Assembly: GCA_039683615.1 (NCBI GenBank)
Contig: JBDKRA010000021.1
Span: 1 to 64,000, forward strand
Reading direction: 5' to 3'
Origin: Phycisphaerae bacterium
Lineage (GTDB): Bacteria > Planctomycetota > Phycisphaerae > SM23-33
DNA length: 64,000 nt
The position numbers and the translations under genes are program-made. The notes below the pieces were generated by a model. The model searched no databases and had not been told where the DNA came from. It worked only from the letters and a program-made list of their open reading frames with translations. Shown one piece after another: positions 31,367-60,947 of the stretch (its first letter is position 1; every line of letters begins with the position of its first letter).

Positions 31367-31389
31367 CCTTCCCGTGAGGAGCCCGCACA

Positions 31390-39218: not shown

Positions 39219-39440
39219 CCGCGCCGCCTGGACGCTGGCTGGTCATCATTATGAACTTCGGGATGGTCGTTTTCATTGAGTGCCTCCGCCGCGACTTTTC
39301 CCCTGCAACGGAGCGCTATCGCGGCGCGAATATGATTGAAATTCGGAGGCGGAAGGCACTATAACATTCACTATCGTGTGTGGAGCGGATTGGAGGAATC
39401 CAACCGCCAGGACCGGGAGCTTTTCCCGGGTCCCCAATAC

Positions 39441-39511
39441 TGGGGATTGGTGTAACGGTAGCACGACTGACTCTGGATCAGTTAGTCAAGGTTCGAATCC
39501 TTGATCCCCAG
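39441..39511 (+). tRNA. tRNA-Gln (anticodon CUG)
   Basis: Manual fold: acceptor TGGGGAT/ATCCCCA (U1:A72 as in bacterial tRNA-Gln), D-arm GTGT-AACGGTA-GCAC, anticodon stem ACTGA/TCAGT with loop CTCTGGA (U33, anticodon CTG), T-arm CAAGG-TTCGAAT-CCTTG, discriminator G. CCA not encoded. Confidence 0.8.
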
Positions 39512-39750
39512 GTCGTGCGAAAGGGCCGTCTCTGACGCTGTCCAGAAAGCTATGGGCGTCAGAGGCGGCCTTTCGTGTTTAGCATCGCCGCCACAGAACG
39601 GTCAAGATTTCTTGAAACAAATCGGCTGCGTGTGCGTCTCATCAGCAATGTCGGGCAGGGCCGGGCTTTTTCCGTGCCTTGGCGGTACGATACCCACGGA
39701 TGGCGTCTGCCATGCGATGCACGCGTCCACAATCACTTGGAGATTCGCTC

Positions 39751-42700
39751 ATGAATGCCTCTCGCTCGCTTCGCCCGGTCGTTTCGCTGCTGGTGCTGAC
39801 AGCCGTTGCCGCCGCGGCCTGGGCTGCTCCGCCCGAGCCTGCCAAGGCCCCCGACAAGGTTTACGTGCCCTACGACAAGCTCAAGGGCCTCCTCGACGAC
39901 GAAGGCCAGGGCGTCTTCCTGCCGTACAAAGATTTCCAGCGCCTCTGGCAGGCGGCCCAGGCCTCTCCGGCCGACGCCGCTGCCGCGCCGGGCGACTATC
40001 TGATCTCCACCGCCCGATTCAGCGGCGGCGTCGGCGGCGAGCTGGCGGCGCTCAAGCTCGAACTCACCGTCGACATCCTGGCCGAGGGATGGGTCAACGT
40101 GCCGCTGGGGCTTGGCGAGGCCGCCATCGCCCGTACCGCGATCCAGGGCGACGACAAGACCCAGCCGCTACTGCGCGTCGTGGACGGGCAGTATGTCCTG
40201 CTGGCCAAAGGCGCAGGGCGAAAGGTCGTGCAGATCGACTTCGTCCGCCAGATCCAGACGCAGCCAGGGCTGAACATCCTCGATCTGGCCCTGCCGCGTG
40301 CGGCCATCACCACCTTCGAGCTGGTCATTCCCGAGGAGAACATGAAGGTGGACGTCGAGCCGATGCTGGCAGCCACCACCAGCCAGGAAACCGCCGCCGG
40401 CAAGAGCGCCACGCGTCTGCAGGCGTTCCTGGGCGCGGCCCAGCGCGTCAAGCTCTCGTGGAAGCCCAAGACGCAGGCCGCCGCGGACCTGCAGCCGGTG
40501 ATCATCTCCAACCAGCTCCAGCACCTCTTGGTCACCGAGGCGCTGGTGTCGTATGACGTCACGTTCAACTACGAGATCCGCCGCCGCGGCGTCGACGCCT
40601 TCACCATCGAGCTGCCGGCGGGCTTCCGTGTCACCAGCGTCGAGGGCGCCAACATCGGCAAGTGGGATGTCGCCGACGCCCCAGCCGCCGCAGCCGGCGC
40701 CAAGGCCCCGGCCGGTCAACTGCTCAAGGTGAAGTTGTTTTCCGCCGTCACCGACAATTACACCCTCGTGCTCAAGATGGAGCGCCTGCTGAAGGAAACG
40801 CAGGTGGACCTGCCGCTGACGCCGGTGCTGACGCACGAGGTGCTGCGGCGCAGCGGTCTGCTGGCCGTGACGCACTCGCCGCGCCGGTCGGTGGAGCTGC
40901 GCGACCTCAAGAACCTCTCCCGCGTTGACACCGGTCGCCTGCCAGGCAACCTCAGCGGGCAAAGCGGCGCGACGGCGTACCAGTTCGTCTCGGCCGACTA
41001 CGCCGCCACCCTGGTCATCGGCACGGTTGAGCCTCGGGTGGCCGTGTTCCAGCAATGGTCGCTGGCGGTGAACGATTCGTGGCAGCAACTCCAGGGGAAC
41101 ATCAACTACAGCATCGAGCGAGCGGGCCTGTTCCGCATCTCGATGACGCTGCCTGAGCCCTGGGAGGTGCTGTCGGTGGGTCCGGCCGACGTCGTCGACG
41201 ACCACCAGTTCAGCGGCAAGGGCGACACGCGGCAGCTCAACATCCTGCTCAAGCGTGAGATCATCGGCAACGTCTCGCTGGCGATCCAGGCCCGCCGCCC
41301 GCGGGCCAAGCTCGACGACAGCGTCACCTTTACGCTGCCCCAGCCCGACAAGACGAACCTGCGCCACTACAGCGGGCAGTTCGTGCTGTACGTGCCCGCC
41401 CACCTCAGCGCCCAGGTCGAGCGGCTCGACCAGTTCCAGTCGCTGCCGCTGCGGCAGATCGGCCAGCGCGGCGCCTTCGGCATGGCGCCGCAAATGGCGT
41501 TCCAGTTCGGGGCCATCGCCGCCGACAAGCCCGCCGCGGCGATCTTCAAGATCGCCGTCAAGCCTTCGCAGGTCTCGGCCGTCGTGAACCGCCTGGTGAA
41601 CATCCAGCCCGGCGCGATCGTCGACCAGGCGGCTATCGCCTACACCGTGCTCTACTCGCCGCAGGATGTGTTCTACGTTCAGGTCCCGGTCGAACTGGCC
41701 GATGCGGGCCTGACCCTCACCGGCGAGAACATCAAGGAAACGCCCCGCGTGGACGCCCCGCCGGCTACCGGTCCCTCGCAGGGTTCGGCCGGCGAGGCCG
41801 CCCCCGCCACCGCCCCGGCGACCAAGGCCGGCGTCGTGTACTATAAGGTTGTGCTCCAGTCGCCGATGACGGGCACGTACTGGCTGTACACCAACGTGCG
41901 CCGCCCGTTCAAGGCCGGCGCGGTCGGCTCGGCCGCCACCGTCAACGTCGAGCCGATCCTCGCCGCCGGACGCCTGAGCGACCAGAGCGGCTTTGTCGCT
42001 ATCGCCAAGGGCGAGACGCTGGCTCTCGGCCAACCCCTCGCCAATAACCTCACCCCCGGCGACCCGACCAGCGCCGTCGACCTGCCTTACGCCCCGCACC
42101 GCGGCGCCGCTTCACTGGCGTTTCGATATACCCGCCCTCCGTTCGAGCTGTCGCTGCCGGTCGTGACGCAGGAAGAGGCGGCCGTCATCACGACGATGGC
42201 CACCGCGACGATCGTCGAGCAGGTGCTCGGCTACGACGGGCAGCTTAACGGGCGCGTCGTGTACCTCCTCAAGACCAGCAAGGGCGACCGCCTGCCCATC
42301 ACGCTGCACGGGGCCAAGCTCCGCCAGGTATTGCTCAATGGCGTCGAGGCGCCGGTCGAGGCCTCGACCGCAGCCGACCAGAGCATCGTGCGGCTGCCTC
42401 CCTCGGCCGGGCAGGTGACCAATGTCGTCCTGGACATCCGCTTTGGGCAAGACAAGGCCTCGGCGTCGAAGCTCGATGTGCCTTCGCTGCCCAAGGAGGT
42501 GGCCTTCCAGGTGACGCTGTGGCGGCTGTGGATTCCCGAGCAGGACATCGTCCTGGGCAACGACCGGGCGTTCTCGCCCGTTCGCGGCGACGGCGAACTG
42601 GCCATGCTGGCAAGCAACCAGCCCGTGCAGGTGACCTGGGCTCTGCCCGGTCAAGGGTGGGCGATGACCTTCCAGCGCCAAGGCGCGCCGGGGACGCTGT

Positions 42701-43038
42701 CGGTGACGACCGTCGGGCGCGAGGGCTTCGCCGTGGCGACCTGGCTGGTGGTGCTGGCCGCCGGAGCGGCCATGCTGAAGCTGCGGGGCTTCCCGCGACT
42801 GGTGATCGTGCTGGCGGCCATCGTGCTGCTGGCGGTGATCAACCTGTATTGGCCGCAGTTCGCCTTCCGCCTGGGTTGGCATGGTCTGCTGGCTGCGGTA
42901 GTGGTCCTGGCGCTGTGGGCGGGGCAGTGGTTCTTCGCCATGCTGCGCCGCCGCGCCGGCCGCGCCGGCAGCCCGCCGCCGATGCCCGTCGCAACGCCCG
43001 TCAGCGATCGGCCGCAGACGCCGGCAGGCAAGGAGTAA
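39751..43038 (+). CDS. Large secreted, C-terminally membrane-anchored protein (1096 aa), unit A of a triplicated module
   Basis: Signal peptide MNASRSLRPVVSLLVLTAVAAAAWA, conserved N-terminal block VYVPYDKLKGLL...FLPYKDFQRLWQAA, about 950-aa beta-rich region, 2-3 C-terminal TM helices (WLVVLAAGAAML...VIVLAAIVLLAVINLY...LLAAVVVLALWAGQWFF). Confidence 0.6.
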   Translation: MNASRSLRPVVSLLVLTAVAAAAWAAPPEPAKAPDKVYVPYDKLKGLLDDEGQGVFLPYKDFQRLWQAAQASPADAAAAPGDYLISTARFSGGVGGELAALKLELTVDILAEGWVNVPLGLGEAAIARTAIQGDDKTQPLLRVVDGQYVLLAKGAGRKVVQIDFVRQIQTQPGLNILDLALPRAAITTFELVIPEENMKVDVEPMLAATTSQETAAGKSATRLQAFLGAAQRVKLSWKPKTQAAADLQPVIISNQLQHLLVTEALVSYDVTFNYEIRRRGVDAFTIELPAGFRVTSVEGANIGKWDVADAPAAAAGAKAPAGQLLKVKLFSAVTDNYTLVLKMERLLKETQVDLPLTPVLTHEVLRRSGLLAVTHSPRRSVELRDLKNLSRVDTGRLPGNLSGQSGATAYQFVSADYAATLVIGTVEPRVAVFQQWSLAVNDSWQQLQGNINYSIERAGLFRISMTLPEPWEVLSVGPADVVDDHQFSGKGDTRQLNILLKREIIGNVSLAIQARRPRAKLDDSVTFTLPQPDKTNLRHYSGQFVLYVPAHLSAQVERLDQFQSLPLRQIGQRGAFGMAPQMAFQFGAIAADKPAAAIFKIAVKPSQVSAVVNRLVNIQPGAIVDQAAIAYTVLYSPQDVFYVQVPVELADAGLTLTGENIKETPRVDAPPATGPSQGSAGEAAPATAPATKAGVVYYKVVLQSPMTGTYWLYTNVRRPFKAGAVGSAATVNVEPILAAGRLSDQSGFVAIAKGETLALGQPLANNLTPGDPTSAVDLPYAPHRGAASLAFRYTRPPFELSLPVVTQEEAAVITTMATATIVEQVLGYDGQLNGRVVYLLKTSKGDRLPITLHGAKLRQVLLNGVEAPVEASTAADQSIVRLPPSAGQVTNVVLDIRFGQDKASASKLDVPSLPKEVAFQVTLWRLWIPEQDIVLGNDRAFSPVRGDGELAMLASNQPVQVTWALPGQGWAMTFQRQGAPGTLSVTTVGREGFAVATWLVVLAAGAAMLKLRGFPRLVIVLAAIVLLAVINLYWPQFAFRLGWHGLLAAVVVLALWAGQWFFAMLRRRAGRAGSPPPMPVATPVSDRPQTPAGKE

Positions 43039-43042
43039 CACC

Positions 43043-46000
43043 ATGAAGAACCTTCCGACGTGGCTGATCACCGTGGCTGTGCTGGCCGGCGTCGGCGCCG
43101 CCAACGCCCAGCAGCAACCCGCCGAAAAGGGCAACCTCTACGTGCCCTATCGCGACCTGGCCGCAGCGCTCGATCCGGCCGCCAAGAGCATCCTCATGGA
43201 CCGCGGCGAGTTCGCCGCCCTGCTCACCGCCGCCAAGGCCAACCAGGCCGCTGCCGACAGCCGCCAGCTCGGTCAGGTGACGGTTGCCCGCTATCAGGCC
43301 GACGTCACCGGCCAATCGTTGCGACTGACGGGCGACCTGGAAGTGATCTCCCTCAGCGACAGGCCTGTGGCGGTTCCGCTGGCGTTCGCGCGCCTGGGGC
43401 TGCTGAAAGTCACCCTCGACGGCAAAAGCGCCCCGCTGGGCTACGATGACGGGGCCCTGGTGCTGCTGGTGAGCGGCAAGGGCAAGCACGCCGTCACGAT
43501 CGAGGCCTCGGCCGCCTTGGCCGAGTTGCCCCTGTCGCGCTTTCCTGCCGGGGGCTTGCAGTTCGGCATCTCGATTCCCCCGGCCGTGGCGGGCACGATG
43601 ACCCTGACGGCGCCGGGCGACCTGGAGATCTCCACCTCGGCGGCCATGGGCAAGAGCGCCTACGACCGCGCGACCGACCGCACCCGCGTTGAGTTGACCA
43701 TCGGCGGACGCGACTCGGTGACGGCCGTGCTGCTGGGCAACGGCCGACAGGAAGCGCAGAAGCCCATCCTGCTGGGCGAGAGCACCAGCAGCGTCGAGGT
43801 CGAGACCGACAGCCAGACGCTGCACTGCCTGTACATGGTGGACGTGCTGCGCCGCAGCATTCGCGAGCTGCAGTTTGCGGTGGATGCGTCGTGGACGATC
43901 ACGGCCGTCACGTGCCCGGGCCTGGTGCGCTGGTCCGTCGAGGCGGGCAAGGGCGGCGCGAATATCCTGACCGTGCGACTGGGTTCGGCCAGCCGCGGAT
44001 TGCAGGCGCTGCACATCAAGGCCACCGCCGTGGAGAAGATCGGCGGCGACTGGCGCAGCCCCCGCGTGATCCTGCAGGACGCGGCGTTTCAACGGGGCTA
44101 CCTGCTGGTCAACACGCAGCGCGACCTGCGCGTGCGCGGACACGACCTGTCCGATGCCCGCCGCGAAGACGCCGGCGCCACGCAGGTCCCGGCGCTGTTT
44201 GGCCTGCTCACCGGGCGGCTGTACTATCACTGGGGGGCCGACTGGTCCGTCAAGCTGCGCACCGCCAAGGTGCCGCTGCGCCGCGAGAGCCAGGACCGCC
44301 AGCGCCTCGCCGTGGGCGACAAGAGCCTCACGCTGACGGGCGACTTCCAAGTCACGGCCGTGGGCAGCGAGATGTTCGACATGAACTTCCGCCTGCCGCC
44401 GGCGGCGTGGGAACTGGTAAGCGTGACGGTCAACGGCAGCGCCCAGGGCTTTGAGTATCACGTGACCGACGACCCGACGCCCGCGACGCAACCGGCCGCT
44501 TCGGCCCCGGCGGCGGGGCGGCGCCTGCGCATCGAGTTGGCGCGTCCGGTGCAGCCCGAGGCCGTGGCGAATGTGTCCGTCACGCTCCAGCACGTGCCGC
44601 AGAATTGGCTCTGGCGCGCCGGCAGCACGCCGCGCGTCATCGTGATGCCTCTGCTGGCGTGCCAGGCCGACCAGGTCTCCGGCGTCGTCAGCGTTTCGAC
44701 CTCGGACGATCTGGACGCAGCGCCCGACGCCGTGCTGGACGCCATCAAGGCCGTCAACGTCGGACGCATGACCTCGATGGGCCTGAGCTCCGATGTGCAG
44801 CTTGCCTGGACGTACGACCAGCAGCCCCCGGCCGCAAACGTGGCAGTGGCGATCAGCCGCCGCACCGCGCGACTGGCGGCCGAGTCCGTCGGCCTGGTTT
44901 CGCTGACGGCTGAACACATGCGCGGCCACTGGCGCGTGACGTACAACATCACCCGCGCCCGCACGGCTGAGCTGGCGCTGCTGGTCGACAATTCGCTTGG
45001 CGAAGAGGTGTCCATCGAAGTCCCCGGCCGGCGAATCGCTGCCAAGCGTCGCATCGAGGCTGGATTGAGGAAGGAAGATGCCGCAGAAAAGTTTATGACG
45101 CTGGAGGGATCAGAGAGATCGCAAGTACCCCAAGGCTACAGTCTCTGGAAGATCACGCTGGACGCCGAGGCCTCGGGACAGGTGGCCGTGGACGTGACGT
45201 ACAGCCGCCCGCTGCCGGTCAAGGGGTTCGCCCTGCCGCTGGTGCGGCCGTACGGAGCCGACCAGGTCACCGAGTACCTGGCGCTTCAGGCGGCTGAAGA
45301 GCTCGCTGTCGATGCCAAGGCCAACGCCGCCGGGCGGGGCATCGATAGCGCCGACCTGCCCTCTCTGCCCGAGAAGGCAGCCCGCCTGCTGGCGGCGTGG
45401 CGATTTGAAAACGGCGCCGCCGAGCCGGCGGTGAACGTCTCGACCACCGTGTACCAGACCGTCGCCATCCCTGCGGCGCTGGCGGGCTCGGCCGAGCTGA
45501 CGACGTATCTCGACAGCCAGGGCAACCAGCGCACGCAGGCGCTGTTCAAGCTCGTCAACGCGGGCCTGCAGTTTGTCAGCATCCAACTGCCCGCCAACGC
45601 GACGCTGTGGTCGATCACCGTCGACGGGCAACCGTCCAAGCCGCAGCGCGACACGACGGGCAACTACATGGTGCACCTGCCGCGCTCATCTCGCAGCCCG
45701 CTGGTAAAAGTGGTCTATGGCGCCACGGGCAACTCCGGCGACATGCACGCCTTGGCCGCGGCGTCGCTGCCGGGCGTGAAGATCAACACCGTCTCATGGA
45801 CGGTCCTGACCGCCCCGGGCTTCTGCATTACCGCCCAGGATTCCAACATGACTAGCGACGGGCTCTATAGCGTCGCCCCGGCATACCAGCAGATGACAGA
45901 GCTCTCTTTCGGGTTCAAGAGGGTCTCAGCAAACGTCATCGCGTCTTCACCTTACAACGCTCCGAGCAAGCGGCCTGACGGGGAAGTAACGGCCGAGGTC

Positions 46001-49000
46001 TCGATGGAGTCGCAAGCAATGCGCAAGGACGCAAAGAAGGAATCGGCCCCAGCGCAGAAACCGGCGGATCTGCCGGCTTCGGTTGTTCTAGACCACGGCC
46101 GCGGCTTGGTTGTCGCGGGCAGGTACACGCTGCCGGTGGAGCTCTCAGAGACCGGCGACTACGGCGACCGCGTCACGTTCAGCTCGCTCGACCCGCTGCC
46201 GCTGGCGGTGGGGATCACGCAGGAGTCGAGCCTCGACAGCTTCGCGCTGCTGGGGTTCGTTCTGGCGGGCCTGGCCGGGCTCTTGCGCGTCAATGCGCGG
46301 GCGCGGCAAAAGGCGAGGTTCATCATCGCCATCCTCATCGGCGCCAGCCTCGTAGCCGTGTGGTGGCAGGACGCGGCGCCGTTCATGAACGGAATGTTCT
46401 GGGCCGCGATGCTGCTCATTGTCTTCTACCCGGCGGTGGGCCTGGTGCGGATCATCCTTCGCGCCGTTCGCCCGCGGCCAATCCCTGTGCTGGCCCGCGC
46501 CGTGATGCTCCTGGCGGCGGTGTTGTTGATGGCCCAGTCCGCACGCGCGGGCGACGCCCAGGCCAACAATGCGCCTGTTCAAGCCGGCAAGCCTGTCGTG
46601 GCCCCGCTGGTCATCCCCTACGAGGGCGAGGCGGCCAAGGCCGACCAGGCCAAGAAAGTTCTCGTCTCGTATGCGAAGTTCGTCGAGCTCTGGAACGCCG
46701 CCCATCCCGACCAGGCCATCGACCTGGTCCCGGCCGCGGGCAAGCTCTGGCTGGCCGACGTGCGTTACGCCGCGGCCGTCAAGGGCGACACGCTCACGCT
46801 GACGCTGACCGCGCAGGCCCAAACGCTGGGCAAGGGCCTGGTGGTCGTGCCGATCCCGTTCGAGGGCGTGGCCCTGACGGCCGCTTCGCTCGACGACAAA
46901 CCCGTGCCCATCTCCTCCGGCGAGAAGGGCATGATGCTGACGCTGCCCGCCGCGGCCAAGGGCACGCTGAAACTCTCGGCGGTCACTACCGCCAAGCCGC
47001 AGGCGGGGCGGCCGACGGTCAACCTCACGCTGCCGCCGCTTCCGGCGGGCGTGATGACGGTAGCGCTGCCGGCCGACGACCTCGTGCTCGAAGTGCCCCA
47101 GGCCCAAGGCAGCCTCACCACCCGCAAGGCCGATGGCGGTGTCGAATGGACCGTTCCGCTGGGCCTGGCCCGCGCGCTGACGCTGCGATGGAGCCCCAAG
47201 GCCGGCGGGGGAACGGTGGACCGCACTCTGTCGGCCGCGGCCAACCACGACGTGAGCTTCAATCACTGGGGCATCATCGGCGCCACGCAGATGGTCTTCA
47301 CCTTCAGCGCCACCGACTACGACCAGTTCCGCCTGCTGGTTCCGGCGGGCATGAGCCTGACCACCCTGACCGGGGCAAACCTGCGCGACTTCGCCATCGT
47401 CGCGACGGCCAATACCGAGGGCCAGAATTACGACGTGGTGCTGGTGCGCCTGCACCGCCCCGCGGCCAAGACGTACGAGATGACCGCCAAATGGGCCGCG
47501 GCGCTTCCGGCGCTGGACAAGCCCTTCGCCCTGCCGCTGCCCCAGGCCGGCGACGTGGCGCGCGAAAGCGGCGCGGCGACCCTGCGCGTCGCCGGCGGCA
47601 TTACGCTCACCGAGATCGGCGTCGAGGGCGGGCGGCGACGCGGCTTGGGCGAGGGCGGCCGCAGCGGCGAAACCGCCGCCGACGCCACGCGCGAAGTCTC
47701 GTCCTACTACTGGCCGTACCGCCCCTTCGCCCTGACGCTCAAGCTGCACCGTAGCGAAACGCAGACCGCGGCCGTCGTGAACCAGCTTGTCCGCATCGAC
47801 GCGCGTCGCTGCCAGCTCCTGGTGCAGGCGAACCTGACGGCCAGGCGCGGGCGGCTGTTCGAGGCCTCGTTTGCCCTTCCCGACGGGTATGAGCTGCTCA
47901 GCGCGGCCGGGGCGGCGGTGGAAGATTTCCACGTCGAGCCCGCGCCGGCGGGGCGGCGGCTTTACGTGAACCTCCGCGGCGGTGCCACGAGCACCAGCCT
48001 GGCGCTGGTGCTGGTAAAGAGCCCGCTGAGCCTGGGGCGCCTCAGCGTGCCCAAGGTCACCCTGCTCGATACCGCCGGCGCGCCGCTGGCCGAGCAGACC
48101 GGGCGCCTGGCGGTGCAACTGGCCGCCTCGCTCGAGGCGCACACCCTGACCAGCGAGAACCTCGCCAGCGCCCCGCCGGCCCGCGTGCTGGATGGGTGGC
48201 TGGGCAGCGACGACATCCGCGCCGCCCAGTTCGCCTACCAGTACGACCGCCCGGCCATCGCCCTGGACCTGGACGTGCGGGCCAAGCCCACGCGAACCAG
48301 CGTCGAGGTCGTCGCCGGCGTGACCGTGCAGCCAACCGCCGCCTGGTACACCTACCGCCTGCGATACGCCATCAGCGGCTCGCCGATCGACCACATCAGC
48401 TTCACGCTGCCTTCGCAGTACGCCTCGCTGGCGGCCGTCACCTGCCCGGCCATGCGCAGCGTCAAGACCGAAGACGCCGGCGGCGCGCGGACGCGGTGGA
48501 CCGTCTCGCTGATCAACGAAGTCACCGGCGTGCTGGACGTGGCGGTGAACTTCGCCACGCCCATCACGGCCCAGACGACGGCCCTGACGGTGCCGCGCGT
48601 GGTCACGGCCGCCCCGGAAGGGTATCGCTGCGTGGTGGCCGTGCAGAATCTCTCGCGCCACGAGTTGTCGGTCGAGTCGGCATCGGAAATGTCGGCCCTG
48701 CCCGCCAGCCAGCAGCGCGACCTGCTCGGGGCCGCCCACGCGTCGCTGCAGTATGTCTTCCAAGCCTTCAGCGACACCTGGACGCTGGCCCTGAAGCTCA
48801 AGCCCGCCGAGCCCGCCAAACGCACCACGGCCATCATCGATCTGATGGCCATCGCGACGACGATCGACCTCGAGGGCAACAGCCGCTATGAGGTCGAGCT
48901 GATGCTGCAGAACCGCAGCGAGCAGTTCCTGCACGTCAAGGTTCCCCCCGAGTTGAAACTCTGGAGCGCGTACGTCGACGGCAAGGCCGTCAAGCCCGCC

Positions 49001-50617
49001 GCCGAGGGCGCCTCTGCCGGCGAAACGCTCATCCCGCTGATCAAGACCTCGGCGACGGGTCTGCCGTACTCGGTCAAGCTCTACCTGGCCGGGCGGGCCA
49101 GCGAGTCGCTGGGGCGCATCACCAAGATCACGCCCCCGAGCATCCGCATTATCGGGATCCCCGTCGAGCAGACCACGTGGAACCTGCAACTGCCCCGCGG
49201 ATACCGCTACAGCGAAGGCGGCGGAATGGCCAGGCGAGGCACCACCGACGACGAAGAGAAACAGGCCAAACGGGGAGAGGCGTATCGACTCGTGAGCCGC
49301 GTGGCCGCCCGGGGAAAACAAACCAAGCGCCTCCTCGACGCAGACGAATACTCCAGCGCCGGCAACGGCACGGGCTCGAACTCCTGGACAGACAACATTC
49401 GCCTGCAGAATGACAAATGGAACAAGAGTCGCGAAGAGGCGCGGCAGTTCATCGTCGAAAACCGCGAGACTCTGGGCCGCGAGGCCGAACGCCTCGAAAG
49501 GACGCTCACCGACGACTCCAACACCCAGTACGGACTGAACACGGTCTGGCAGCAGCGGCAGGAGCAGGCCGCCGCCGTCACCGGCGTTAACAACTTTCTC
49601 AACGGCTCGCTCAGCAACAGCGGAGTCTCGGACGCGCTGACCAATGAATGGCTCGGCCGATCCGCCGACTTCGTCACCCGCGCCAACGACGAGCAGCAGC
49701 GGCGCATCGCCGGCGAGCTGGAAAAGAACGACGCCGGCGGCAATGAGATCGTCGAGCGAGCCCTAGGCCGCAAGCTCCAGGAACAGGCCAAGGGCGGCGG
49801 GCGCGCCGGCATTGACGATGAGAAAAAAGAAGAAGCCCTCAAGGAACTCACCAAGCAGTTGGAAGACGAAGGTCGCCGGAACTTCGCCAAACAGCGCGTC
49901 CAGCTCCGCCAGCAGCAGGATGAACTGCAGTTCAACCGCCTCACCCGCAGCCAGTCCGACGGCAAGGACCTGGCCAAGAAGCCCGGCGGCAAGGGCAAGG
50001 GCGAGATGTACCACTTGCAGGGGGGCGCCAAATCGCCGCCGGCGGCGCCGCGGCCGGAACAGCCTCAGTCCTCTGATGGAAGCTGGGCTTACGATGGGCG
50101 CGGGCAGGCAAGAGCAGCGGGCGAACCGTTGGCATTGGGCGTGCGAGGCCCGGTCGCCGGCCAACCCGGCGGCGGGGGCCCCGCTCCGGTCGATAGGCCC
50201 GCGTCGGAACGCGCCGGCGACGCTATCCCCGCCCAGGCCGCCGTGGCGCTGGGCACCTTCTCTCTGCCGGTGAGCCTGCCCCGCGCCGACGGCGTGTCCA
50301 AAGACTTCGCCGGCAGCGGCAGCGACGTCAGCGTCACCATCTGGGCCATCAAGGACTCCACCGCCGGCGTGTGGGAATCGACCGCCGGGGCGGTCATCCT
50401 CCTGACGCTGCTGGCGCTGGCGCTGCGGATCTGGCGCCACGTGCAGCGCAGCGGACCCTCGGCCGGCAGTGCCGCGCGGATCGTGTCCTACGCGGTTCTG
50501 GCCGTCGCCGGATGGGTGCTCTGGGGCCTGGTGCCCGCCTTGGTGCTGACGGCTGTAGTCGCCGCCCTGGCCGAGGCGGCCCGCTACCTGCCCCAGCGCA
50601 AGGCCCGACAACTATAA
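43043..50617 (+). CDS. Giant secreted/membrane protein (2524 aa) made of two tandem fused copies of the unit found in 39751-43038, plus coiled-coil and G/P-rich C-terminal extension and terminal TM pair
   Basis: N-terminus MKNLPTWLITVAVLAGVGAANA + LYVPYRDLAAAL...GEFAALLTAA. Internal TM pair at about aa 1050-1110, then a signal-peptide-like MLLAAVLLMAQSARA followed by a second copy of the module (LVIPYEGEAAKADQAKKVLVSYAKFVELWNAA, about nt 46500-46700). C-terminal R/E/Q-rich coiled coil, G/P-rich region, TM helices at the end. Confidence 0.6.
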   Translation: MKNLPTWLITVAVLAGVGAANAQQQPAEKGNLYVPYRDLAAALDPAAKSILMDRGEFAALLTAAKANQAAADSRQLGQVTVARYQADVTGQSLRLTGDLEVISLSDRPVAVPLAFARLGLLKVTLDGKSAPLGYDDGALVLLVSGKGKHAVTIEASAALAELPLSRFPAGGLQFGISIPPAVAGTMTLTAPGDLEISTSAAMGKSAYDRATDRTRVELTIGGRDSVTAVLLGNGRQEAQKPILLGESTSSVEVETDSQTLHCLYMVDVLRRSIRELQFAVDASWTITAVTCPGLVRWSVEAGKGGANILTVRLGSASRGLQALHIKATAVEKIGGDWRSPRVILQDAAFQRGYLLVNTQRDLRVRGHDLSDARREDAGATQVPALFGLLTGRLYYHWGADWSVKLRTAKVPLRRESQDRQRLAVGDKSLTLTGDFQVTAVGSEMFDMNFRLPPAAWELVSVTVNGSAQGFEYHVTDDPTPATQPAASAPAAGRRLRIELARPVQPEAVANVSVTLQHVPQNWLWRAGSTPRVIVMPLLACQADQVSGVVSVSTSDDLDAAPDAVLDAIKAVNVGRMTSMGLSSDVQLAWTYDQQPPAANVAVAISRRTARLAAESVGLVSLTAEHMRGHWRVTYNITRARTAELALLVDNSLGEEVSIEVPGRRIAAKRRIEAGLRKEDAAEKFMTLEGSERSQVPQGYSLWKITLDAEASGQVAVDVTYSRPLPVKGFALPLVRPYGADQVTEYLALQAAEELAVDAKANAAGRGIDSADLPSLPEKAARLLAAWRFENGAAEPAVNVSTTVYQTVAIPAALAGSAELTTYLDSQGNQRTQALFKLVNAGLQFVSIQLPANATLWSITVDGQPSKPQRDTTGNYMVHLPRSSRSPLVKVVYGATGNSGDMHALAAASLPGVKINTVSWTVLTAPGFCITAQDSNMTSDGLYSVAPAYQQMTELSFGFKRVSANVIASSPYNAPSKRPDGEVTAEVSMESQAMRKDAKKESAPAQKPADLPASVVLDHGRGLVVAGRYTLPVELSETGDYGDRVTFSSLDPLPLAVGITQESSLDSFALLGFVLAGLAGLLRVNARARQKARFIIAILIGASLVAVWWQDAAPFMNGMFWAAMLLIVFYPAVGLVRIILRAVRPRPIPVLARAVMLLAAVLLMAQSARAGDAQANNAPVQAGKPVVAPLVIPYEGEAAKADQAKKVLVSYAKFVELWNAAHPDQAIDLVPAAGKLWLADVRYAAAVKGDTLTLTLTAQAQTLGKGLVVVPIPFEGVALTAASLDDKPVPISSGEKGMMLTLPAAAKGTLKLSAVTTAKPQAGRPTVNLTLPPLPAGVMTVALPADDLVLEVPQAQGSLTTRKADGGVEWTVPLGLARALTLRWSPKAGGGTVDRTLSAAANHDVSFNHWGIIGATQMVFTFSATDYDQFRLLVPAGMSLTTLTGANLRDFAIVATANTEGQNYDVVLVRLHRPAAKTYEMTAKWAAALPALDKPFALPLPQAGDVARESGAATLRVAGGITLTEIGVEGGRRRGLGEGGRSGETAADATREVSSYYWPYRPFALTLKLHRSETQTAAVVNQLVRIDARRCQLLVQANLTARRGRLFEASFALPDGYELLSAAGAAVEDFHVEPAPAGRRLYVNLRGGATSTSLALVLVKSPLSLGRLSVPKVTLLDTAGAPLAEQTGRLAVQLAASLEAHTLTSENLASAPPARVLDGWLGSDDIRAAQFAYQYDRPAIALDLDVRAKPTRTSVEVVAGVTVQPTAAWYTYRLRYAISGSPIDHISFTLPSQYASLAAVTCPAMRSVKTEDAGGARTRWTVSLINEVTGVLDVAVNFATPITAQTTALTVPRVVTAAPEGYRCVVAVQNLSRHELSVESASEMSALPASQQRDLLGAAHASLQYVFQAFSDTWTLALKLKPAEPAKRTTAIIDLMAIATTIDLEGNSRYEVELMLQNRSEQFLHVKVPPELKLWSAYVDGKAVKPAAEGASAGETLIPLIKTSATGLPYSVKLYLAGRASESLGRITKITPPSIRIIGIPVEQTTWNLQLPRGYRYSEGGGMARRGTTDDEEKQAKRGEAYRLVSRVAARGKQTKRLLDADEYSSAGNGTGSNSWTDNIRLQNDKWNKSREEARQFIVENRETLGREAERLERTLTDDSNTQYGLNTVWQQRQEQAAAVTGVNNFLNGSLSNSGVSDALTNEWLGRSADFVTRANDEQQRRIAGELEKNDAGGNEIVERALGRKLQEQAKGGGRAGIDDEKKEEALKELTKQLEDEGRRNFAKQRVQLRQQQDELQFNRLTRSQSDGKDLAKKPGGKGKGEMYHLQGGAKSPPAAPRPEQPQSSDGSWAYDGRGQARAAGEPLALGVRGPVAGQPGGGGPAPVDRPASERAGDAIPAQAAVALGTFSLPVSLPRADGVSKDFAGSGSDVSVTIWAIKDSTAGVWESTAGAVILLTLLALALRIWRHVQRSGPSAGSAARIVSYAVLAVAGWVLWGLVPALVLTAVVAALAEAARYLPQRKARQL

Positions 50618-50664: not shown

Positions 50665-52143
50665 TTGCAGGAGAGCGAGATGGACTATCCCAGGTTCGGG
50701 ACCGGGCGAGTCTTATTTGCGGCGATCACCGTGATGGCGATTTGGAGCAGCATTGCCTCGGGCCAGGCCCAGGCGCCGGTCGGTCCGAAAATCAAGATCG
50801 CCGTCCTGGGCGACTCGATCTCGACGCAGCCGCACTGGCCTGACCGGCTGGGCAAGCTGCTGGGCGAGGGATACGAGGTGAAGGCCTTCGCCGCAAACGG
50901 CACGGGCATCATCCGCTCGAACATCCGCTCGATCTGGCGGCGCTACGAGATGGCCCATGCCTGCCAGTGGCAGCCCAACGTCATGATCCTGATGTACGAC
51001 CACGCCGCCAGTCGCAAGGGCGAGTGGAACGAGAAGGCCTTCCTGGCCGACTACAAGGAACTCATCGCCCGCCTGCAGACGAAGGTCGCCTCCAAGCCCA
51101 AGCTCTACATCTGCCTGCCGATCCCGGCGATGGACGAGTGCTACTTCGGGATCGTGGCCGACACGCTCAACAACCACGTCGTGCCGGCGGTGCGAAAGGT
51201 GGCCGAGGAGACCGCCGTCCCGTTGATCGACACGCACACGCCCATCAAGGGCAAGGCCGACATGATCGGAATGGACGGCGTCTTCCCCACTGAGCGCGGC
51301 TATGCCACTATCGCCGTGACGGTCTACAAGGCGCTGACCGGCAAAGACGCCCCGCCCCAACCGGAAATCCTCGCCGCCGTGCCGGTGGTCAAGACCGCCA
51401 CGCCCGCCGAGCAGGCCGTCGAGGGATGGAAGGACAAGCCCGCCGCAGCCAAGGCCGAACTCACGGCCGCCATCGTGCTGGACCCCAAAGGTGACGGACC
51501 CGACGCCAAGCCCAACACCGACGACGATGCGTGGGGCTTCTGGTTCATGTTGGCCGACCCCACCCACCGCTACAATCGCCTGGACCTGCCGACCTGGACC
51601 ATGCCCGACGACCAGCGAAAGAACGGAATCCGCGACCCGAACTCGCCGGCCGGGCACCAGGGCAAAGTCACCGGCCCGATCGCCTCTTCGCTGCCGGACC
51701 TGATTGATTCGGAAGGATGGATCTTCCACACCGACTGGGACGGCCGCTACGAAGGCATCTGGGGCAACAAGCGGGCCAACTGCGTGCTGATGCATCCGTA
51801 CGTCGAGAAGAACGGCCACCACGCGGTCGCTGTCACATACACTGTGCCGGCCTCGGGCGTCTACACCCTCTCGGGCAAAGTGACGGACCTGCAGGTCGTC
51901 AACAACTACGTCAAGTGCGACGGGATCACGTGGAAGATCGAAATCGCCGAGGGCGGCGAGACTGGCGTGCTGTTGGGCAAGGGCCAGGCCGGCGACGGCC
52001 ACGGAAGACCCGATTCAACCGAGTTCAAGATCGAGAAGGTCAAGATCGGCGGCGGCAAGAACATCCGCCTGGTGATCCACCCCAACTTCTGGTGGGGCAC
52101 CGATCTGACGCGCATCGACTCCTTCAAGATCGAAAGGCAGTAG
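50665..52143 (+). CDS. SGNH/GDSL-family hydrolase with an additional C-terminal beta-rich domain, secreted
   Basis: Signal peptide then KIKIAVLGDSIS (GDS(L) block I), later SGNH blocks; 492 aa. Confidence 0.6.
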   Translation: MQESEMDYPRFGTGRVLFAAITVMAIWSSIASGQAQAPVGPKIKIAVLGDSISTQPHWPDRLGKLLGEGYEVKAFAANGTGIIRSNIRSIWRRYEMAHACQWQPNVMILMYDHAASRKGEWNEKAFLADYKELIARLQTKVASKPKLYICLPIPAMDECYFGIVADTLNNHVVPAVRKVAEETAVPLIDTHTPIKGKADMIGMDGVFPTERGYATIAVTVYKALTGKDAPPQPEILAAVPVVKTATPAEQAVEGWKDKPAAAKAELTAAIVLDPKGDGPDAKPNTDDDAWGFWFMLADPTHRYNRLDLPTWTMPDDQRKNGIRDPNSPAGHQGKVTGPIASSLPDLIDSEGWIFHTDWDGRYEGIWGNKRANCVLMHPYVEKNGHHAVAVTYTVPASGVYTLSGKVTDLQVVNNYVKCDGITWKIEIAEGGETGVLLGKGQAGDGHGRPDSTEFKIEKVKIGGGKNIRLVIHPNFWWGTDLTRIDSFKIERQ

Positions 52144-53211: not shown

Positions 53212-54012
53212 TCAGGCCGGCGCCTTGGCGTTCTTTGCCTTCTGCACCATCGGGCGATAGAGGCTGTCGACGACGTTGCGGACGAACTGCTCGCTCGACA
53301 GGCCGTCGGTGGCTTCCTGGGGAAAGGAGGAGAGCGACTGGAAGTGGTCGGCCAATTCGGTGAAGACCTGCAGCCGGTTGTCGGCGTGGAGGGTTTCGCG
53401 GCGGAGCATGGCCTCGGCAGCCAGGCGCGCCTCATCGGCGGAGATCTTGTGGCGCAGGCGGGCTTCGAGGATGGGCCAGGCGCGGAAGGAGTTGAACTTG
53501 TCTTCGGCCAGTACGACGCTCAGGTCCGGTTCGTACGTCCGCGGGGAGGCCACGACGACCGTTCCGCCGGCCAGATCGCCGAGGCGCTGGCCGTGGCGGC
53601 TCAGGAGCATCGACAGCCCGCCGACGAGATACATCGCCGGTATCGAGTCGACGGGGCGCAGCAGGTTGCGGATCAGCACCTGGCTGAAGGTCAGGGGCAT
53701 GGCCTGGTTGTCCATGACGCGCAGGCCCAGGGCCTTCTTGCCCAGGGTCTGCCCGCCCCATCGCCACTCGAGCACCACGCCGTACCCGATGCCCACCAGG
53801 AAGACCAGGATACCGTACAGGGCGTTAATCAGCCCGCCCAGCAGCGGCGCCAGCGGGCTGAGCAACATCGAGAGGACAATGTAGAGCCCGATCTCGACAA
53901 ACAGGTCGATGAACCACGCGAGCATTCGGGCGGCCGGCCCGGCCAGCGGATACGAAAAGGCGTACCCTTCGGGCGTACGGATGACCAGCGTGTTGGTGCG
54001 GCGGCTAGCCAT
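53212..54012 (-). CDS. RDD family membrane protein
   Basis: LAWFIDLFVEIGL...RWGGQTLGKKALGLRV... is the RDD motif region; 3 TM helices. Confidence 0.65.
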   Translation of the reverse strand: MASRRTNTLVIRTPEGYAFSYPLAGPAARMLAWFIDLFVEIGLYIVLSMLLSPLAPLLGGLINALYGILVFLVGIGYGVVLEWRWGGQTLGKKALGLRVMDNQAMPLTFSQVLIRNLLRPVDSIPAMYLVGGLSMLLSRHGQRLGDLAGGTVVVASPRTYEPDLSVVLAEDKFNSFRAWPILEARLRHKISADEARLAAEAMLRRETLHADNRLQVFTELADHFQSLSSFPQEATDGLSSEQFVRNVVDSLYRPMVQKAKNAKAPA

Positions 54013-55066
54013 CGGCGTCTCCGGCGTCGCTGCGCCCGGCAAAGCCCAGCAGCAGCACCAGGCCTGTCAGTTCGATACAGCCGAAGGTGATCTTGGCCCA
54101 GTACGGCAGCACCGGCCAATGGTACTGCGAGATGAAGGCTTCGATGAGCCCGGCCCAGACCAGCATGACGGCCACGCCGATGATGAGGGTGACCAGGTCG
54201 GGCGCGACGCTTTTGAGCCGCGCCGAGAGGCGGTGGCGGTCGCCCCATCCGATGACGGCGCGGCCGAGCACGAGCCCGGCCTGACCGGCCAGGAAGATCG
54301 CCGGCAGTTCGATCGACCCGTGCGGCAGCAGCCACCCGACGAGGAACGTGCCCTCGCCGGCGCGGAAGTAGTCCAGCGTCACCGAGCCGAGGATCAGCCC
54401 GTTGTAGAACAGCATCACGATCGTGCCGACGCCCCAGGTGATGCCCAGCGCCATCGTGTTGATCGACACGCGCGTGTTGTGCGTCATGTACATGCCGGCC
54501 GCTTCGGTCTTGTGGCCGGCGAAGGGATTCTGCACCTGCTGCTCTTCGTGCTTGACGCGGTCTCGCGGGTCGCCCCGCAGATGCGAGAAGGGAAGGATGG
54601 TGGGCTTGCCCTCGGTGTCGATGGCCGTCAGGAGCGCTCCGATCAGCGCCGCGGCCAGCGAAACCGTCAGGGACAGCCAGAACGCATTGGCGTGCTTTCG
54701 GAACGTTTGCGGGAAGGTGTTGAAGAACCAGTGGACCGGGCGGACCCGCCGGCGCGGCGCGGCCGTCACGTGGATCACGGCGTATGCCCGGGCCACCAGC
54801 GCCTCGACGTGCGTTCGAAGTTGCGGTTGGGCGCAGAACGTGTCCAGGCGCGCCAGGTCGGCAGAGGCCCGCTCGTACAGGTAATGCAGCCGCCGCACCT
54901 GTTCGATCTGCGCGGCGAGGTAGTCGGCCGGCGGCTCTTGCCCCTCCGCGCGCTCGTGGCGCACCAGCCGCCAGGCCGGGTCGGTCTCGAGCATGCCCAG
55001 CATCGACTCGAGCTCCTGCCAGTACGGCTGCTCGGCGTCCACAAATTGTCGCAGGTCGATGATCAC
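54005..55066 (-). CDS. Stage II sporulation protein M-like / DUF95 family membrane protein
   Basis: 353 aa, GTG start overlapping the upstream gene's stop (GTGA). Multi-TM C-terminal half with FYNGLILGSV...LLPHGSIELPAIFLAGQAG, typical of the SpoIIM/DUF95 family. Confidence 0.6.
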   Translation of the reverse strand: MIIDLRQFVDAEQPYWQELESMLGMLETDPAWRLVRHERAEGQEPPADYLAAQIEQVRRLHYLYERASADLARLDTFCAQPQLRTHVEALVARAYAVIHVTAAPRRRVRPVHWFFNTFPQTFRKHANAFWLSLTVSLAAALIGALLTAIDTEGKPTILPFSHLRGDPRDRVKHEEQQVQNPFAGHKTEAAGMYMTHNTRVSINTMALGITWGVGTIVMLFYNGLILGSVTLDYFRAGEGTFLVGWLLPHGSIELPAIFLAGQAGLVLGRAVIGWGDRHRLSARLKSVAPDLVTLIIGVAVMLVWAGLIEAFISQYHWPVLPYWAKITFGCIELTGLVLLLGFAGRSDAGDADG

Positions 55067-56430
55067 AGGAGCTGCCTCTGCTTGACGGCCATGTATTGCG
55101 AGATCAATTGCGCGCTGAGCGTTTCGTTATCGAGTTGGTGGAAGCTGATCCCGCGGCGGCGGAGGGCGGCTTCCAGCTCGCGCAGGCGGCGCCACTGCAG
55201 GTGCCCGCCCAGGCCGGCGTAGATGTCCTCGACGCTGGCGGCCTCGCGCTCGAACAGCGGCGCCACGTCGGGGTTCTTCAGCGAGCTGACCAGCACCAGG
55301 TGCTGGCGGCTGACGACCCGCACGTGGTGGGCGAACTGCTCGGCGATGATCGGGTCGTCGAGGTTGGTCAGGATGATCAGCAGCGCGCGACGGCGGATGC
55401 GCGTGCGCACGAAAGAGAACAGCTCGCCGAAGTCCGGCGTGACGGCGCTGGGCTGGACGTTGAGCAGCGTGTCGCGGCACGCGCGGAAGTGCCCGCGCCC
55501 GCCGCGGGCCCGCAGAAAGCGGTCCACCTGCGTCGTGAAGGTCGCCAGGCCCAGCAGGTCCCCCTGGCGATGGGCGGCCATCGCCAGCACCAGCGAGGCC
55601 GTCACGAACCGTTCGAGCATGTTGGTCGTGCCGCCGAGGTCCTCCACGCCGTCGCCGCGCTCGGCGCCGGGCAGGGCGATGGCCCGCCCGCTGAGGCGCG
55701 ACGAGTCGATCAGCACGTACACTTCCTGCGTGCGCTCGATCTGGTAGATCTTGGTGACGGGGCGGCCTCGCTTGGCGGTGGCCTTCCAGTGAATGTCCGC
55801 GTAGCTGTCGCCGGGGATGTACGCGCGGAGCTTTTCGAAGTCGCGCCCCTGCCCGACCTGGCGCTGGGCGTGGACCCCGTAGCCGCCGCGGTTGAGAAAC
55901 AGCGCCGCCGCGCTGCGTCGCTCGGCGCCGAGGTTGGGGTAGACGCATATCTCTCCGTGGACAGGCAGAGCCTTGCGCATCGCCCACAGGCCCAGGGGCG
56001 AGGGTGTTTCGACCCAGCAGGTCTCCAGCGCGAACCGCCCTCGCCGCGCGGGGCGGCAGGTCCAGACGGCGTAGGCGCTGCTGGGGCCGCCCTGGGGCTT
56101 GAGCCTGAAGTCGATGTCGGCCTGGGGGCACGAGATCTCCGGCGGCAAGGCCAGCACCGCCCGCAGACGCAGGTCCCGTCCGCGCGAGTCGATGGCCACC
56201 AGCGTAATCTGGCCCTCGACGTCCCGCGTCAGGCGAGCCCCGTGCGGGGCGCTCATGCTCAGGCCGCCAAAGATGCCGATGGCGGCCGCGGCGTCGCCCG
56301 CGGCCACCAGCATCACGATCGCCAGGATGAGGATGACCGGCGTCGCCAGAGTCGGCGACAGCGCCGCCGCCACCGTCAGCGGGACGGCGGTCAAACCCAC
56401 CAGTCGGATCAGTCGGTTCTGCGGGGCCAT
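55063..56430 (-). CDS. DUF58 domain protein (VWA-like, MoxR-associated)
   Basis: N-terminal TM pair; DFEKLRAYIPGDSYADIHWKATAKRGRPVTKIYQIERTQEVYVLIDSS is the hallmark DUF58 block. Confidence 0.7.
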   Translation of the reverse strand: MAPQNRLIRLVGLTAVPLTVAAALSPTLATPVILILAIVMLVAAGDAAAAIGIFGGLSMSAPHGARLTRDVEGQITLVAIDSRGRDLRLRAVLALPPEISCPQADIDFRLKPQGGPSSAYAVWTCRPARRGRFALETCWVETPSPLGLWAMRKALPVHGEICVYPNLGAERRSAAALFLNRGGYGVHAQRQVGQGRDFEKLRAYIPGDSYADIHWKATAKRGRPVTKIYQIERTQEVYVLIDSSRLSGRAIALPGAERGDGVEDLGGTTNMLERFVTASLVLAMAAHRQGDLLGLATFTTQVDRFLRARGGRGHFRACRDTLLNVQPSAVTPDFGELFSFVRTRIRRRALLIILTNLDDPIIAEQFAHHVRVVSRQHLVLVSSLKNPDVAPLFEREAASVEDIYAGLGGHLQWRRLRELEAALRRRGISFHQLDNETLSAQLISQYMAVKQRQLL

Positions 56431-57395: not shown

Positions 57396-57399
57396 TGCG

Positions 57400-60640: not shown

Positions 60641-60650
60641 GGAAGCTCGC

Positions 60651-60947
60651 TCAGCCGCCGGCGTGGAACGTGTCGGGCAGCCTTCGCAATATCTCGCCCA
60701 GGTAATGAAAGAACATCCACGCGATCAGCAGGCTCGTCAGGGCCAACAGGGCGGCCCCGGCGCCGCGCAGCAGCCCGCTGCCCCGCCGCCGAGGCGCCGC
60801 CAGAGCCGCCAGACACGCGGCACAGATCACGCGCCCGTCGTGTTCGGTGACGCACTCGCGGCAGAAGAACCGCCGGCACTGCGGGCAGCGTGCGGCCGCC
60901 TCGCGCGAGGCGTGGTGGAAGCAGCGCTGATGCGTCAATGCGTTCAT
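60651..60947 (-). CDS. Zinc-ribbon (CxxC-x4-CxxC-x9-CxxC) membrane protein
   Basis: MNALTHQRCFHHASREAAARCPQCRRFFCRECVTEHDGRVICAAC then one TM helix; ATGA overlap with the upstream gene. Confidence 0.5.
   Translation of the reverse strand: MNALTHQRCFHHASREAAARCPQCRRFFCRECVTEHDGRVICAACLAALAAPRRRGSGLLRGAGAALLALTSLLIAWMFFHYLGEILRRLPDTFHAGG

Follow-up and report, generated by a model that had tools for sequence, protein, structure and literature searches.

In Bradyrhizobium, the cytochrome b/c1 precursor FbcH is cleaved at an internal signal into two subunits of one complex, supplied 1:1. The arrangement, shared by signal-peptidase-processed viral polyproteins, has a signal peptide and an exported domain in frame behind a polytopic membrane protein. 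FbcH is the closest bacterial precedent for the gene BC described here. We analyzed a window of 64,000 nucleotides (nt) from a Phycisphaerae bacterium (assembly GCA_039683615.1, contig JBDKRA010000021.1, positions 1 to 64,000 of the forward strand), in which two adjacent genes encode three related, very large units with predicted export signals: gene A encodes unit A, and gene BC encodes units B and C in a single open reading frame (ORF). Like the FbcH type, BC combines a transmembrane protein, an internal signal and an exported domain in one frame, with a cleavage that is only predicted. It differs in that the sequences are unrelated and that the two halves of BC are paralogous to each other and to the separately encoded A.

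A signal peptide, a beta-rich exoplasmic region and a C-terminal transmembrane part, as in the units of A and BC, are also found in BatD (PF13584) and in DUF4139/DUF4140 (MuiA-like) proteins. A first-pass annotation of the window had named BatD and DUF4139 as candidate relatives, but neither A, BC nor 40 diverse members of their family gave a hidden Markov model (HMM) match to these families at E <= 1. BatD belongs to a MoxR-DUF58-BatA-BatB-BatC operon, whereas the MoxR and DUF58 genes of the window lie on the strand opposite to A and BC and are grouped with RDD, SpoIIM, DUF4350 and DUF4129 genes. Searches of A and BC against Pfam and NCBIfam returned nothing real, in agreement with the first-pass annotation, which could not name the family; Pfam gave nothing consistent for the 40 diverse members, and PADLOC gave no match. 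A literature search on planctomycete envelope complexes, ribophorin in Planctomycetes, internal signal peptides and fbcH yielded nothing on the family. A/BC is an undescribed family and architecture that cannot be filed under any described system, and the mechanism set out below is itself only proposed.

The three units and the distribution of their genes

It had been suggested that the locus holds three related units, two of which are fused head to tail and in frame in the second gene. Both suggestions are borne out by BLASTP. Unit A matches unit C (BC residues 1183–1794) with an E value of 9e-22 and 23% identity over 656 columns, and it matches unit B (BC residues 8–516) with an E value of 9e-12, while the first and second halves of BC match each other with an E value of 1e-12. 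Such similarities are far beyond chance, and the three units are distant paralogs. A profile built from 60 unit A orthologs reaches E ~1e-100 against the C-terminal half of BC-type proteins. As this profile mostly hits that half, A is nearer to C than to B.

The frame of BC runs uninterrupted from 43043 to 50617, without a stop or frame change, as originally claimed. The G+C content at third codon positions is 0.88 over the whole of ORF BC, in a window with 60–70% G+C, and both ORFs carry a strong coding signature. The reading frame of A is open already from a TTG at 39679, and a GGAG lies ~10 nt before the ATG of gene A. The two genes are separated by a 4-nt gap in the window and overlap by 4–8 nt in relatives. 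The encoded proteins are identical to LLG01_10450 (A) and LLG01_10445 (BC), both annotated as hypothetical in the same Planctomycetaceae-labelled metagenome-assembled genome (MAG).

The three units are built alike, with a signal peptide, a linker of 10–20 residues, a conserved block, a beta-rich region of ~950 amino acids (aa) and C-terminal hydrophobic helices. The signal peptides end in small-x-small sites, namely AWA/AP in A, ANA/QQ in B and ARA/GD in C (slashes within sequences mark predicted cleavage sites). The block is the best-conserved element of the family and is present in three copies with the consensus xYVPY-(~12)-(V/I)(L/F)(L/V)PY-x-(E/K)F-xx-LW-x-AA. In an alignment of 40 sequences with 20–26% identity P40 is invariant and Y38, Y41, L44, V55, P58, Y59, L65 and W66 are nearly so; across the 60 unit A orthologs V39, P40, Y41, Q53, F56, F62 and W66 are invariant. 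Alignment and AlphaFold2 models confirm the earlier description of one N-terminal block occurring three times ahead of a ~950-aa beta-rich ectodomain.

We collected 71 loci with the unit A ortholog alignment (A1), a sample biased towards Phycisphaerae. In 37 of these, one uninterrupted BC ORF of 2300 aa or more comes directly after an A gene. The BC homologs (n = 96) are nearly all 2300–2900 aa long and extend down to 18–23% identity. A recent fusion had been suggested as one possibility; this view does not hold, as the same fused gene occurs in 37 loci and its junction is conserved to ~20% identity, including in cultured strains. None of the relatives has orthologs split at the B/C junction. 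Broken BC copies were seen on three contigs, none of them broken at the B/C boundary: one breaks at residue 1469, one at residue 1796, and in the third (L036) the break is unlocalised. The corresponding short BC-type matches (P0084, 1469 aa; P0085, 1796 + 650 aa) look like frameshifts or assembly gaps. As the window derives from a MAG, one could suspect a recent fusion, a sequencing frameshift or an assembly artefact that joined two genes. That the same fused gene is present in 37 independent loci, some of them in complete genomes of cultured strains, refutes this explanation, to which we give practically no weight.

The pair is found in MAGs of Phycisphaerae and Sedimentisphaerales and in cultured Planctomycetia, such as Thalassoglobus neptunius (KOR42_03140) and Maioricimonas rarisocia Mal4, where Mal4_24940 (1194 aa) is followed by a 2698-aa gene (CP036275.1, ~3.298–3.310 Mb). 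It is also found in MAGs labelled Opitutia, Victivallales and Thermodesulfobacteriota, taxon labels that are unverified. A profile search returned 5302 cluster representatives at E <= 1e-3, and unit A is ~50% identical across Phycisphaerae. Judged from this distribution, the A/BC pair is ancient and widespread in Planctomycetota, and it appears vertically conserved.

In the complete chromosome of the Phycisphaerales bin1297 MAG (CP070806.1; loci L057/L001 and L063) the unit A ortholog is split. Only the C-terminal ~540–600 aa of A adjoin BC (~4.42 Mb), and a 427-aa ORF whose start matches unit A residues 10–224 lies ~320 kb away (~4.106 Mb). This split reflects either a rearrangement or a misassembly.

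Membrane topology and the junction between units B and C

Each unit ends in three hydrophobic helices, as seen in hydropathy plots of A, B and C and in AlphaFold2 models of unit A and of BC residues 25–1224. These replace the transmembrane hairpin of the first-pass annotation; likewise, the helix pair that it placed at the end of the first unit of BC (nt ~46230–46500) was correctly located, at 46241–46459, and consists of three helices. The loops following helices 1 and 3 are rich in Arg and Lys (KLRGFPR and RRRAGRAG in A; RVNARARQKAR and RAVRPRPIPVLAR in B), unlike the one that connects helices 2 and 3. By the positive-inside rule, these charges predict the helix order out-in-out-in, with every unit ending in the cytoplasm. 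The predicted cytoplasmic tail is RRRAGRAG followed by a Pro-rich stretch up to the stop in A, and RYLPQRKARQL in C. The anchor of B is kept in 50 homologs, including its periplasmic loop W.P..T.FANGAF. We strongly infer a topology in which each unit has a periplasmic ectodomain, a three-helix anchor and a cytoplasmic end.

As the chain is predicted to be cytoplasmic after unit B, a fourth hydrophobic segment is required to bring unit C to the periplasm. A membrane anchor running directly into a signal peptide had been regarded as odd, and it is topologically coherent since unit B ends in the cytoplasm. In frame after the helices of B come the Arg-rich RAVRPRPIPVLAR, then AVMLLAAVLLMAQSARA/GD, a 20-aa linker and LVIPY, the start of the third N-terminal block. 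The predicted signal peptidase I site, ARA/GD, falls between nt 46549 and 46550. The order of these elements is the same in 50 of 50 aligned homologs and, on manual inspection, in four distant loci: three helices come first, then a loop rich in R/K, a short hydrophobic core, a polar stretch containing small-x-small sites, a linker rich in Pro/Ala/Gln and (V/I)(I/V)PY.

Residues 1143–1169 of BC have the characteristics of a Sec-type signal peptide (a positive n-region, a core of 7–15 residues and small residues at −3 and −1), and this pattern, scored with a simple home-made heuristic script and not with SignalP, is present in all 50 homologs. The hydrophobic core has a median length of 13.5 residues among the homologs and is often 7–12 residues long. 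This length fits the h-region of a signal peptide, whereas a stable membrane helix would normally be longer. A lipobox-like Cys is found in the internal segment of 8 of the 50, a frequency similar to that in the N-terminal signals of A (6 of 60) and BC (12 of 50). From its sequence pattern, the segment would be the signal peptide that unit C already had before it was joined to B. We put cleavage of BC at this segment by signal peptidase I at slightly better than an even chance.

The segment could instead be a permanent fourth transmembrane helix. BC would then be one polytopic protein of ~270 kDa with 4 + 3 helices and two giant periplasmic domains, reminiscent of transporters with two large periplasmic loops, and A would be the third leg. 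The frame is uninterrupted and the units are always fused, and a permanent tether would explain why B and C are never separate genes in relatives. AlphaFold2 also draws a helix at model residues 1125–1150. However, a core of 7–12 residues, as in many homologs, is too short for a stable transmembrane helix, and the polar c-region, the small-x-small sites and the Pro/Ala-rich linker always follow it, exactly as they follow the N-terminal signals of A and B. The occasional lipobox-like Cys also speaks for a signal peptide, and in the model of BC 25–1224 the predicted local distance difference test score (pLDDT) is 38–56 at the internal segment, compared to 83–89 at helices 1–3 of the anchor. We regard the uncleaved form as the main alternative, although less likely than not.

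The first-pass annotation had also raised an internal ribosome-binding site and start near 46504. The Met in question is codon 1155, at nt 46505–46507. It is not preceded by a purine-rich Shine-Dalgarno sequence, and it is not conserved, being absent from most homologs. An internal start at M1155 is therefore unlikely.

Fold and proposed function

The ectodomains are all-beta in the AlphaFold2 models, which have a pLDDT of 82 for unit A and 78 for BC 25–1224. Unit A contains three internal repeats (R1–R3), and every one of them carries two strands of ~24 residues; hhalign aligned R1 with R3 at a probability of 96% and R1 with R2 at 88%. Foldseek searches found likeness to integrin alpha legs, ribophorin I/Ost1, PIG-T, the N-domain of M1 aminopeptidases (LTA4H) and alpha-2-macroglobulins, and the unit B ectodomain in particular matched integrin alpha legs, ribophorin I and the LTA4H N-domain. 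A profile of the A1 alignment had no match among the Protein Data Bank sequences at E <= 10.

None of these likenesses amounts to an identity of systems. The beta-sandwich likeness to ribophorin I/Ost1 and PIG-T is at the domain level, with template modelling scores (TM-scores) of at most 0.32; there is no sequence similarity to ribophorin I/Ost1, and PF04597 is matched by neither A, BC nor the 40 members. Compared to these proteins, the A/BC units are bacterial, have three transmembrane helices instead of one, are more than twice the size and contain three internal repeats. As regards the oligosaccharyltransferase, no STT3/PglB-type or transamidase gene was found among the scanned neighbours in the window, and no neighbours are conserved at all. 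The repeats resemble the N-terminal beta domain of M1 (and M61) aminopeptidases (LTA4H, ERAP1, APN, tricorn F3; TAF2), but A and BC have no thermolysin-like catalytic domain, HExxH or Peptidase_M1 match, and the module occurs three times per unit and is membrane-anchored. Integrin alpha legs (thigh, calf-1, calf-2) and the MG arrays of alpha-2-macroglobulin/CD109 are, like the units, strings of beta-sandwiches ending in a membrane anchor, and arrays of this type gave Foldseek E values of 1e-7 to 8e-11 over ~800 columns. Unlike them, A and BC lack a beta-propeller head, a thioester (CxEQ) and A2M Pfam domains, and the likeness is generic for beta-sandwich arrays.

Neither A nor BC contains an HExxH or a CxEQ/C[GL]EQ motif, and unit A has no Cys at all. 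Within the transmembrane helices, no conserved polar or charged residue was seen in the unit A ortholog and 40-sequence alignments, and a channel or transporter was set aside on this ground. The absence of catalytic motifs together with such helices speaks for a role in binding or scaffolding and against an enzyme or channel. In place of a passive scaffold, the units could handle substrates, as periplasmic, membrane-proximal beta-sandwich walls for unfolded exported proteins or glycans, in the manner of ribophorin I/Ost1 in the oligosaccharyltransferase, PIG-T in GPI transamidase and the N-domain in M1 peptidases. Beta-sandwiches of this kind are common, and integrins, ITIH1 and alpha-2-macroglobulins match as well; with no sequence-level relation, no conserved catalytic partner gene and low TM-scores, we find the idea quite improbable.

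The units had been described as surface proteins. Their large size, signal peptides and Ig-like beta-sandwich arrays would suit a cell-surface adhesin or a giant protein resembling those of surface layers, as would the autotransporter-associated beta-strand repeats (PF12951) in a few BC homologs. The anchors, however, are three alpha-helical transmembrane segments whose loops follow the positive-inside rule, as is usual in the cytoplasmic membrane, and Pfam and NCBIfam gave no beta-barrel, PEP-CTERM, type IX secretion system C-terminal domain or LPXTG signal in A or BC. Exposed adhesins are also usually less conserved than the ~50% identity of unit A across Phycisphaerae. A surface location is thus very improbable, and given helical anchors of the inner-membrane type and no surface-sorting signal, periplasmic and anchored in the inner membrane is the better reading. 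The PF12951 repeats occur in longer BC homologs (P0039, P0040 and P0075) and are absent from the window protein; P0046 has been named an autotransporter-associated repeat protein by JGI, and the four proteins are 2688–2835 aa long.

When modelled alone, the N-terminal motif of unit A has a pLDDT of 38–55 and forms no strands. The motifs of B and C, modelled together in BC 25–1224, adopt a beta-alpha-beta-alpha arrangement with a pLDDT of 62–86 (B) and 76–86 (C), a difference that suggests that the motifs of the units may interact.

We propose, tentatively and at a little under an even chance, that A/BC is an ancient operon for three periplasmic legs anchored in the inner membrane at 1:1:1, with B and C made as a polyprotein that is split at the internal signal, and that the legs serve as a non-enzymatic scaffold. 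Each unit would be exported by its Sec-type signal peptide and would then expose the beta-alpha-beta-alpha motif and the ~950-aa all-beta ectodomain, whose three ~180-aa repeats would share their fold with ribophorin I and the N-domain of M1 aminopeptidases. The three C-terminal helices would hold the unit in the cytoplasmic membrane, and its last residues would face the cytoplasm. Unit C would have kept its signal peptide at the B-C fusion; this peptide would restart translocation after the third helix of B, and a cut by signal peptidase I at ARA/GD would most likely release B and C separately. Translational coupling of A and BC, combined with the B-C fusion, would fix a 1:1:1 supply at one insertion site. 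A, B and C would probably associate, perhaps via their N-terminal motifs, into an envelope scaffold, and the operon would appear to be self-contained, needing no conserved partner gene. Taken by itself, the formation of an A/B/C complex has about an even chance, and the scaffold role is doubtful.

Several points weigh against this proposal. The cleavage call is heuristic, and proteins that are Ala-rich and of high GC often contain small-x-small sites. The helix that AlphaFold2 predicts for the internal segment fits an uncleaved transmembrane segment equally well. The fold matches are at the domain level only, with the low TM-scores given above. The contact between motifs is read from a higher pLDDT, which possibly reflects the different unit and alignment. 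Gene A appears split in CP070806; if this is real, an intact A is not always required. Finally, the taxon labels of the non-Planctomycetota MAGs may be wrong.

Features, neighbourhood and significance

The features of the locus and its neighbours are listed in Table 1. The large insertion in unit C is also N-rich and keeps short motifs among homologs (NW..FN.KL, FLN..A.N.G.AE..RN and L.DNR..R.F); at the counterpart of its insertion site, B has a ~70-aa disordered insertion and A has almost none. In a distant BC homolog (L002, 10001–18163, 2720 aa), an extra hydrophobic helix pair (residues ~990–1044) followed by a low-complexity stretch of ~270 aa sits within unit B, upstream of the usual junction of three helices and signal, showing that the insertion site in unit B tolerates large additions.

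Table 1. Coordinates of A, BC, their parts and nearby features in the 64,000-nt window.
Feature	Position (nt)	Strand	Basis or remarks
Gene A, 1095 aa	39751–43038	+	ORF call and translation
Unit A signal peptide, residues 1–25, predicted cleavage AWA/APPEP	39751–39825	+	R5/R8 n-region, hydrophobic 6–27, small-x-small; same layout in homologs
Unit A N-terminal motif, residues 36–71, KVYVPYDKL...GVFLPYKDFQRLWQAAQA	39856–39963	+	Conservation in orthologs
Unit A all-beta ectodomain, residues 80–989	39988–42717	+	AlphaFold2
Unit A internal repeat R1, ~180 aa	40498–41034	+	hhalign
Unit A internal repeat R2, ~180 aa	41035–41568	+	hhalign
Unit A internal repeat R3, ~180 aa	41569–42186	+	hhalign
Unit A membrane anchor, three transmembrane helices, residues 992–1065	42724–42945	+	Hydropathy; AlphaFold2 helices 990–1010, 1014–1033, 1035–1072
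A-BC coupling junction	43026–43045	+	Shine-Dalgarno sequence AAGGAG in last codons of A; A stop TAA 43036–43038; BC ATG 43043
Gene BC, 2524 aa	43043–50617	+	Single frame
Unit B signal peptide, residues 1–22, ANA/QQQ	43043–43108	+	Sequence; hydrophobic segment 4–20
Unit B N-terminal motif, residues 32–68, LYVPYRDLAAALDPAAKSILMDRGEFAALLTAAKANQ	43136–43246	+	Conserved V34, P35, D38, L51, R54, L60, L61, A64 (50 homologs)
Unit B all-beta ectodomain, residues ~75–1060	43265–46222	+	AlphaFold2, Foldseek
Unit B disordered low-complexity insertion, residues ~957–1027	45911–46123	+	pLDDT <50 at model residues 933–1003
Unit B membrane anchor, three transmembrane helices, residues 1067–1139	46241–46459	+	Hydropathy; pLDDT 83–89
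Putative internal signal peptide / fourth hydrophobic segment, residues 1143–1169, RPRPIPVLAR-AVMLLAAVLLMA-QSARA	46469–46549	+	Sequence, homolog alignment
Unit C N-terminal motif, residues 1189–1222, LVIPYEGEAAKADQAKKVLVSYAKFVELWNAAHP	46607–46708	+	P1192 invariant; Y1193, L1216, W1217, P1222 nearly
Unit C ectodomain, residues 1223–2440	46709–50362	+	BLASTP to unit A; conserved flanks TTW.L.LP.GY.Y, Y.LPV.LP
Unit C charged Q/E/K/R-rich insertion, ~340 aa, residues ~2062–2400, in last beta domain	49226–50242	+	Composition
Unit C membrane anchor, three transmembrane helices, residues 2445–2513	50375–50581	+	Hydropathy: 2445–2465, plus 34-residue 2480–2513 broken at GLVP
2-oxoacid oxidoreductase-like fusion protein, 1677 aa	10885–15918	+	Putative assignment from domains
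Alpha-L-fucosidase gene	31378–32688		Upstream of A/BC
tRNA-Gln(CTG)	39440–39512		
Inverted repeat, putative terminator	39524–39578		Directly after tRNA-Gln
GDSL/SGNH hydrolase	50665–52143		
RDD	53212–54042	-	Minus-strand cluster
SpoIIM	54005–55126	-	Minus-strand cluster
DUF58	55063–56472	-	Minus-strand cluster
MoxR AAA_3 ATPase	56430–57581	-	Minus-strand cluster
DUF4350	57400–58752	-	Minus-strand cluster
DUF4129	58703–60724	-	Minus-strand cluster

The tRNA-Gln and SGNH hydrolase genes pointed out in the first-pass annotation are indeed present on either side of the pair, and in the loci of relatives they are not conserved beside it. No other gene family recurs beside the pair in the 71 loci. 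A functional link to the tRNA-Gln, the SGNH hydrolase, a TPR/PD40 protein or the MoxR-DUF58 cluster was rejected, as none of these is conserved beside the pair. The MoxR-DUF58 genes lie ~2.6–7 kb downstream on the other strand, within a six-gene cluster (53212–60724) that converges on BC and starts ~2.6 kb past it; the cluster does not recur in the loci of relatives, and BatA/VWA genes were seen near the A/BC locus of one relative.

As for regulatory RNA upstream of A, Rfam matched only the tRNA, and a scan for promoters and terminators gave nothing informative. Directly after the tRNA-Gln lies a long GC-rich inverted repeat (GGCCGTCTCTGACGC ... GCGTCAGAGGCGGCC) followed by TTTCGTGTTT. It looks like a terminator that would part the tRNA from gene A, and it was missed by the terminator scan because its loop is long.

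An alpha-L-fucosidase gene lies upstream of A/BC both in the window and in L006 (2218–3549), the nearest other relative examined (66% unit A identity), and this shared position is probably residual synteny confined to close relatives. Elsewhere in the window, the 1677-aa fusion protein carries TPP-enzyme, POR, DUF6537, Fer4_20 and Pyr_redox_2 domains; by its domain content it would be a 2-oxoacid:ferredoxin oxidoreductase-like region fused to a flavoprotein resembling the glutamate synthase small subunit.

Planctomycetota have an unusual cell envelope, most protein components of which are unknown. The A/BC pair, ~3600 codons long, is present in both classes sampled (Phycisphaerae and Planctomycetia), including cultured strains, and every copy is annotated as hypothetical. 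A more far-reaching idea, which we consider improbable, makes A, B and C the obligate partners of a pseudo-threefold complex that spans the periplasm from an inner-membrane anchor, occurs only in Planctomycetota and their relatives and derives from a polyprotein cut by signal peptidase at the internal signal. The complex would be a structural part of the envelope, for example by spacing or shaping the enlarged periplasm or by anchoring crateriform structures. If true, it would be a new envelope machine and a rare case of natural polyprotein processing by signal peptidase in bacteria. The three-leg design, with two legs always fused via a putatively retained signal peptide, makes testable predictions on the cleavage site, the 1:1:1 stoichiometry and the periplasmic location. 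Should the internal signal be cleaved, BC would provide a natural and widespread example of a polyprotein processed by bacterial signal peptidase I; if it is not, BC would be a polytopic protein with two periplasmic domains of ~1000 aa. Either outcome would be informative for membrane-protein biogenesis.

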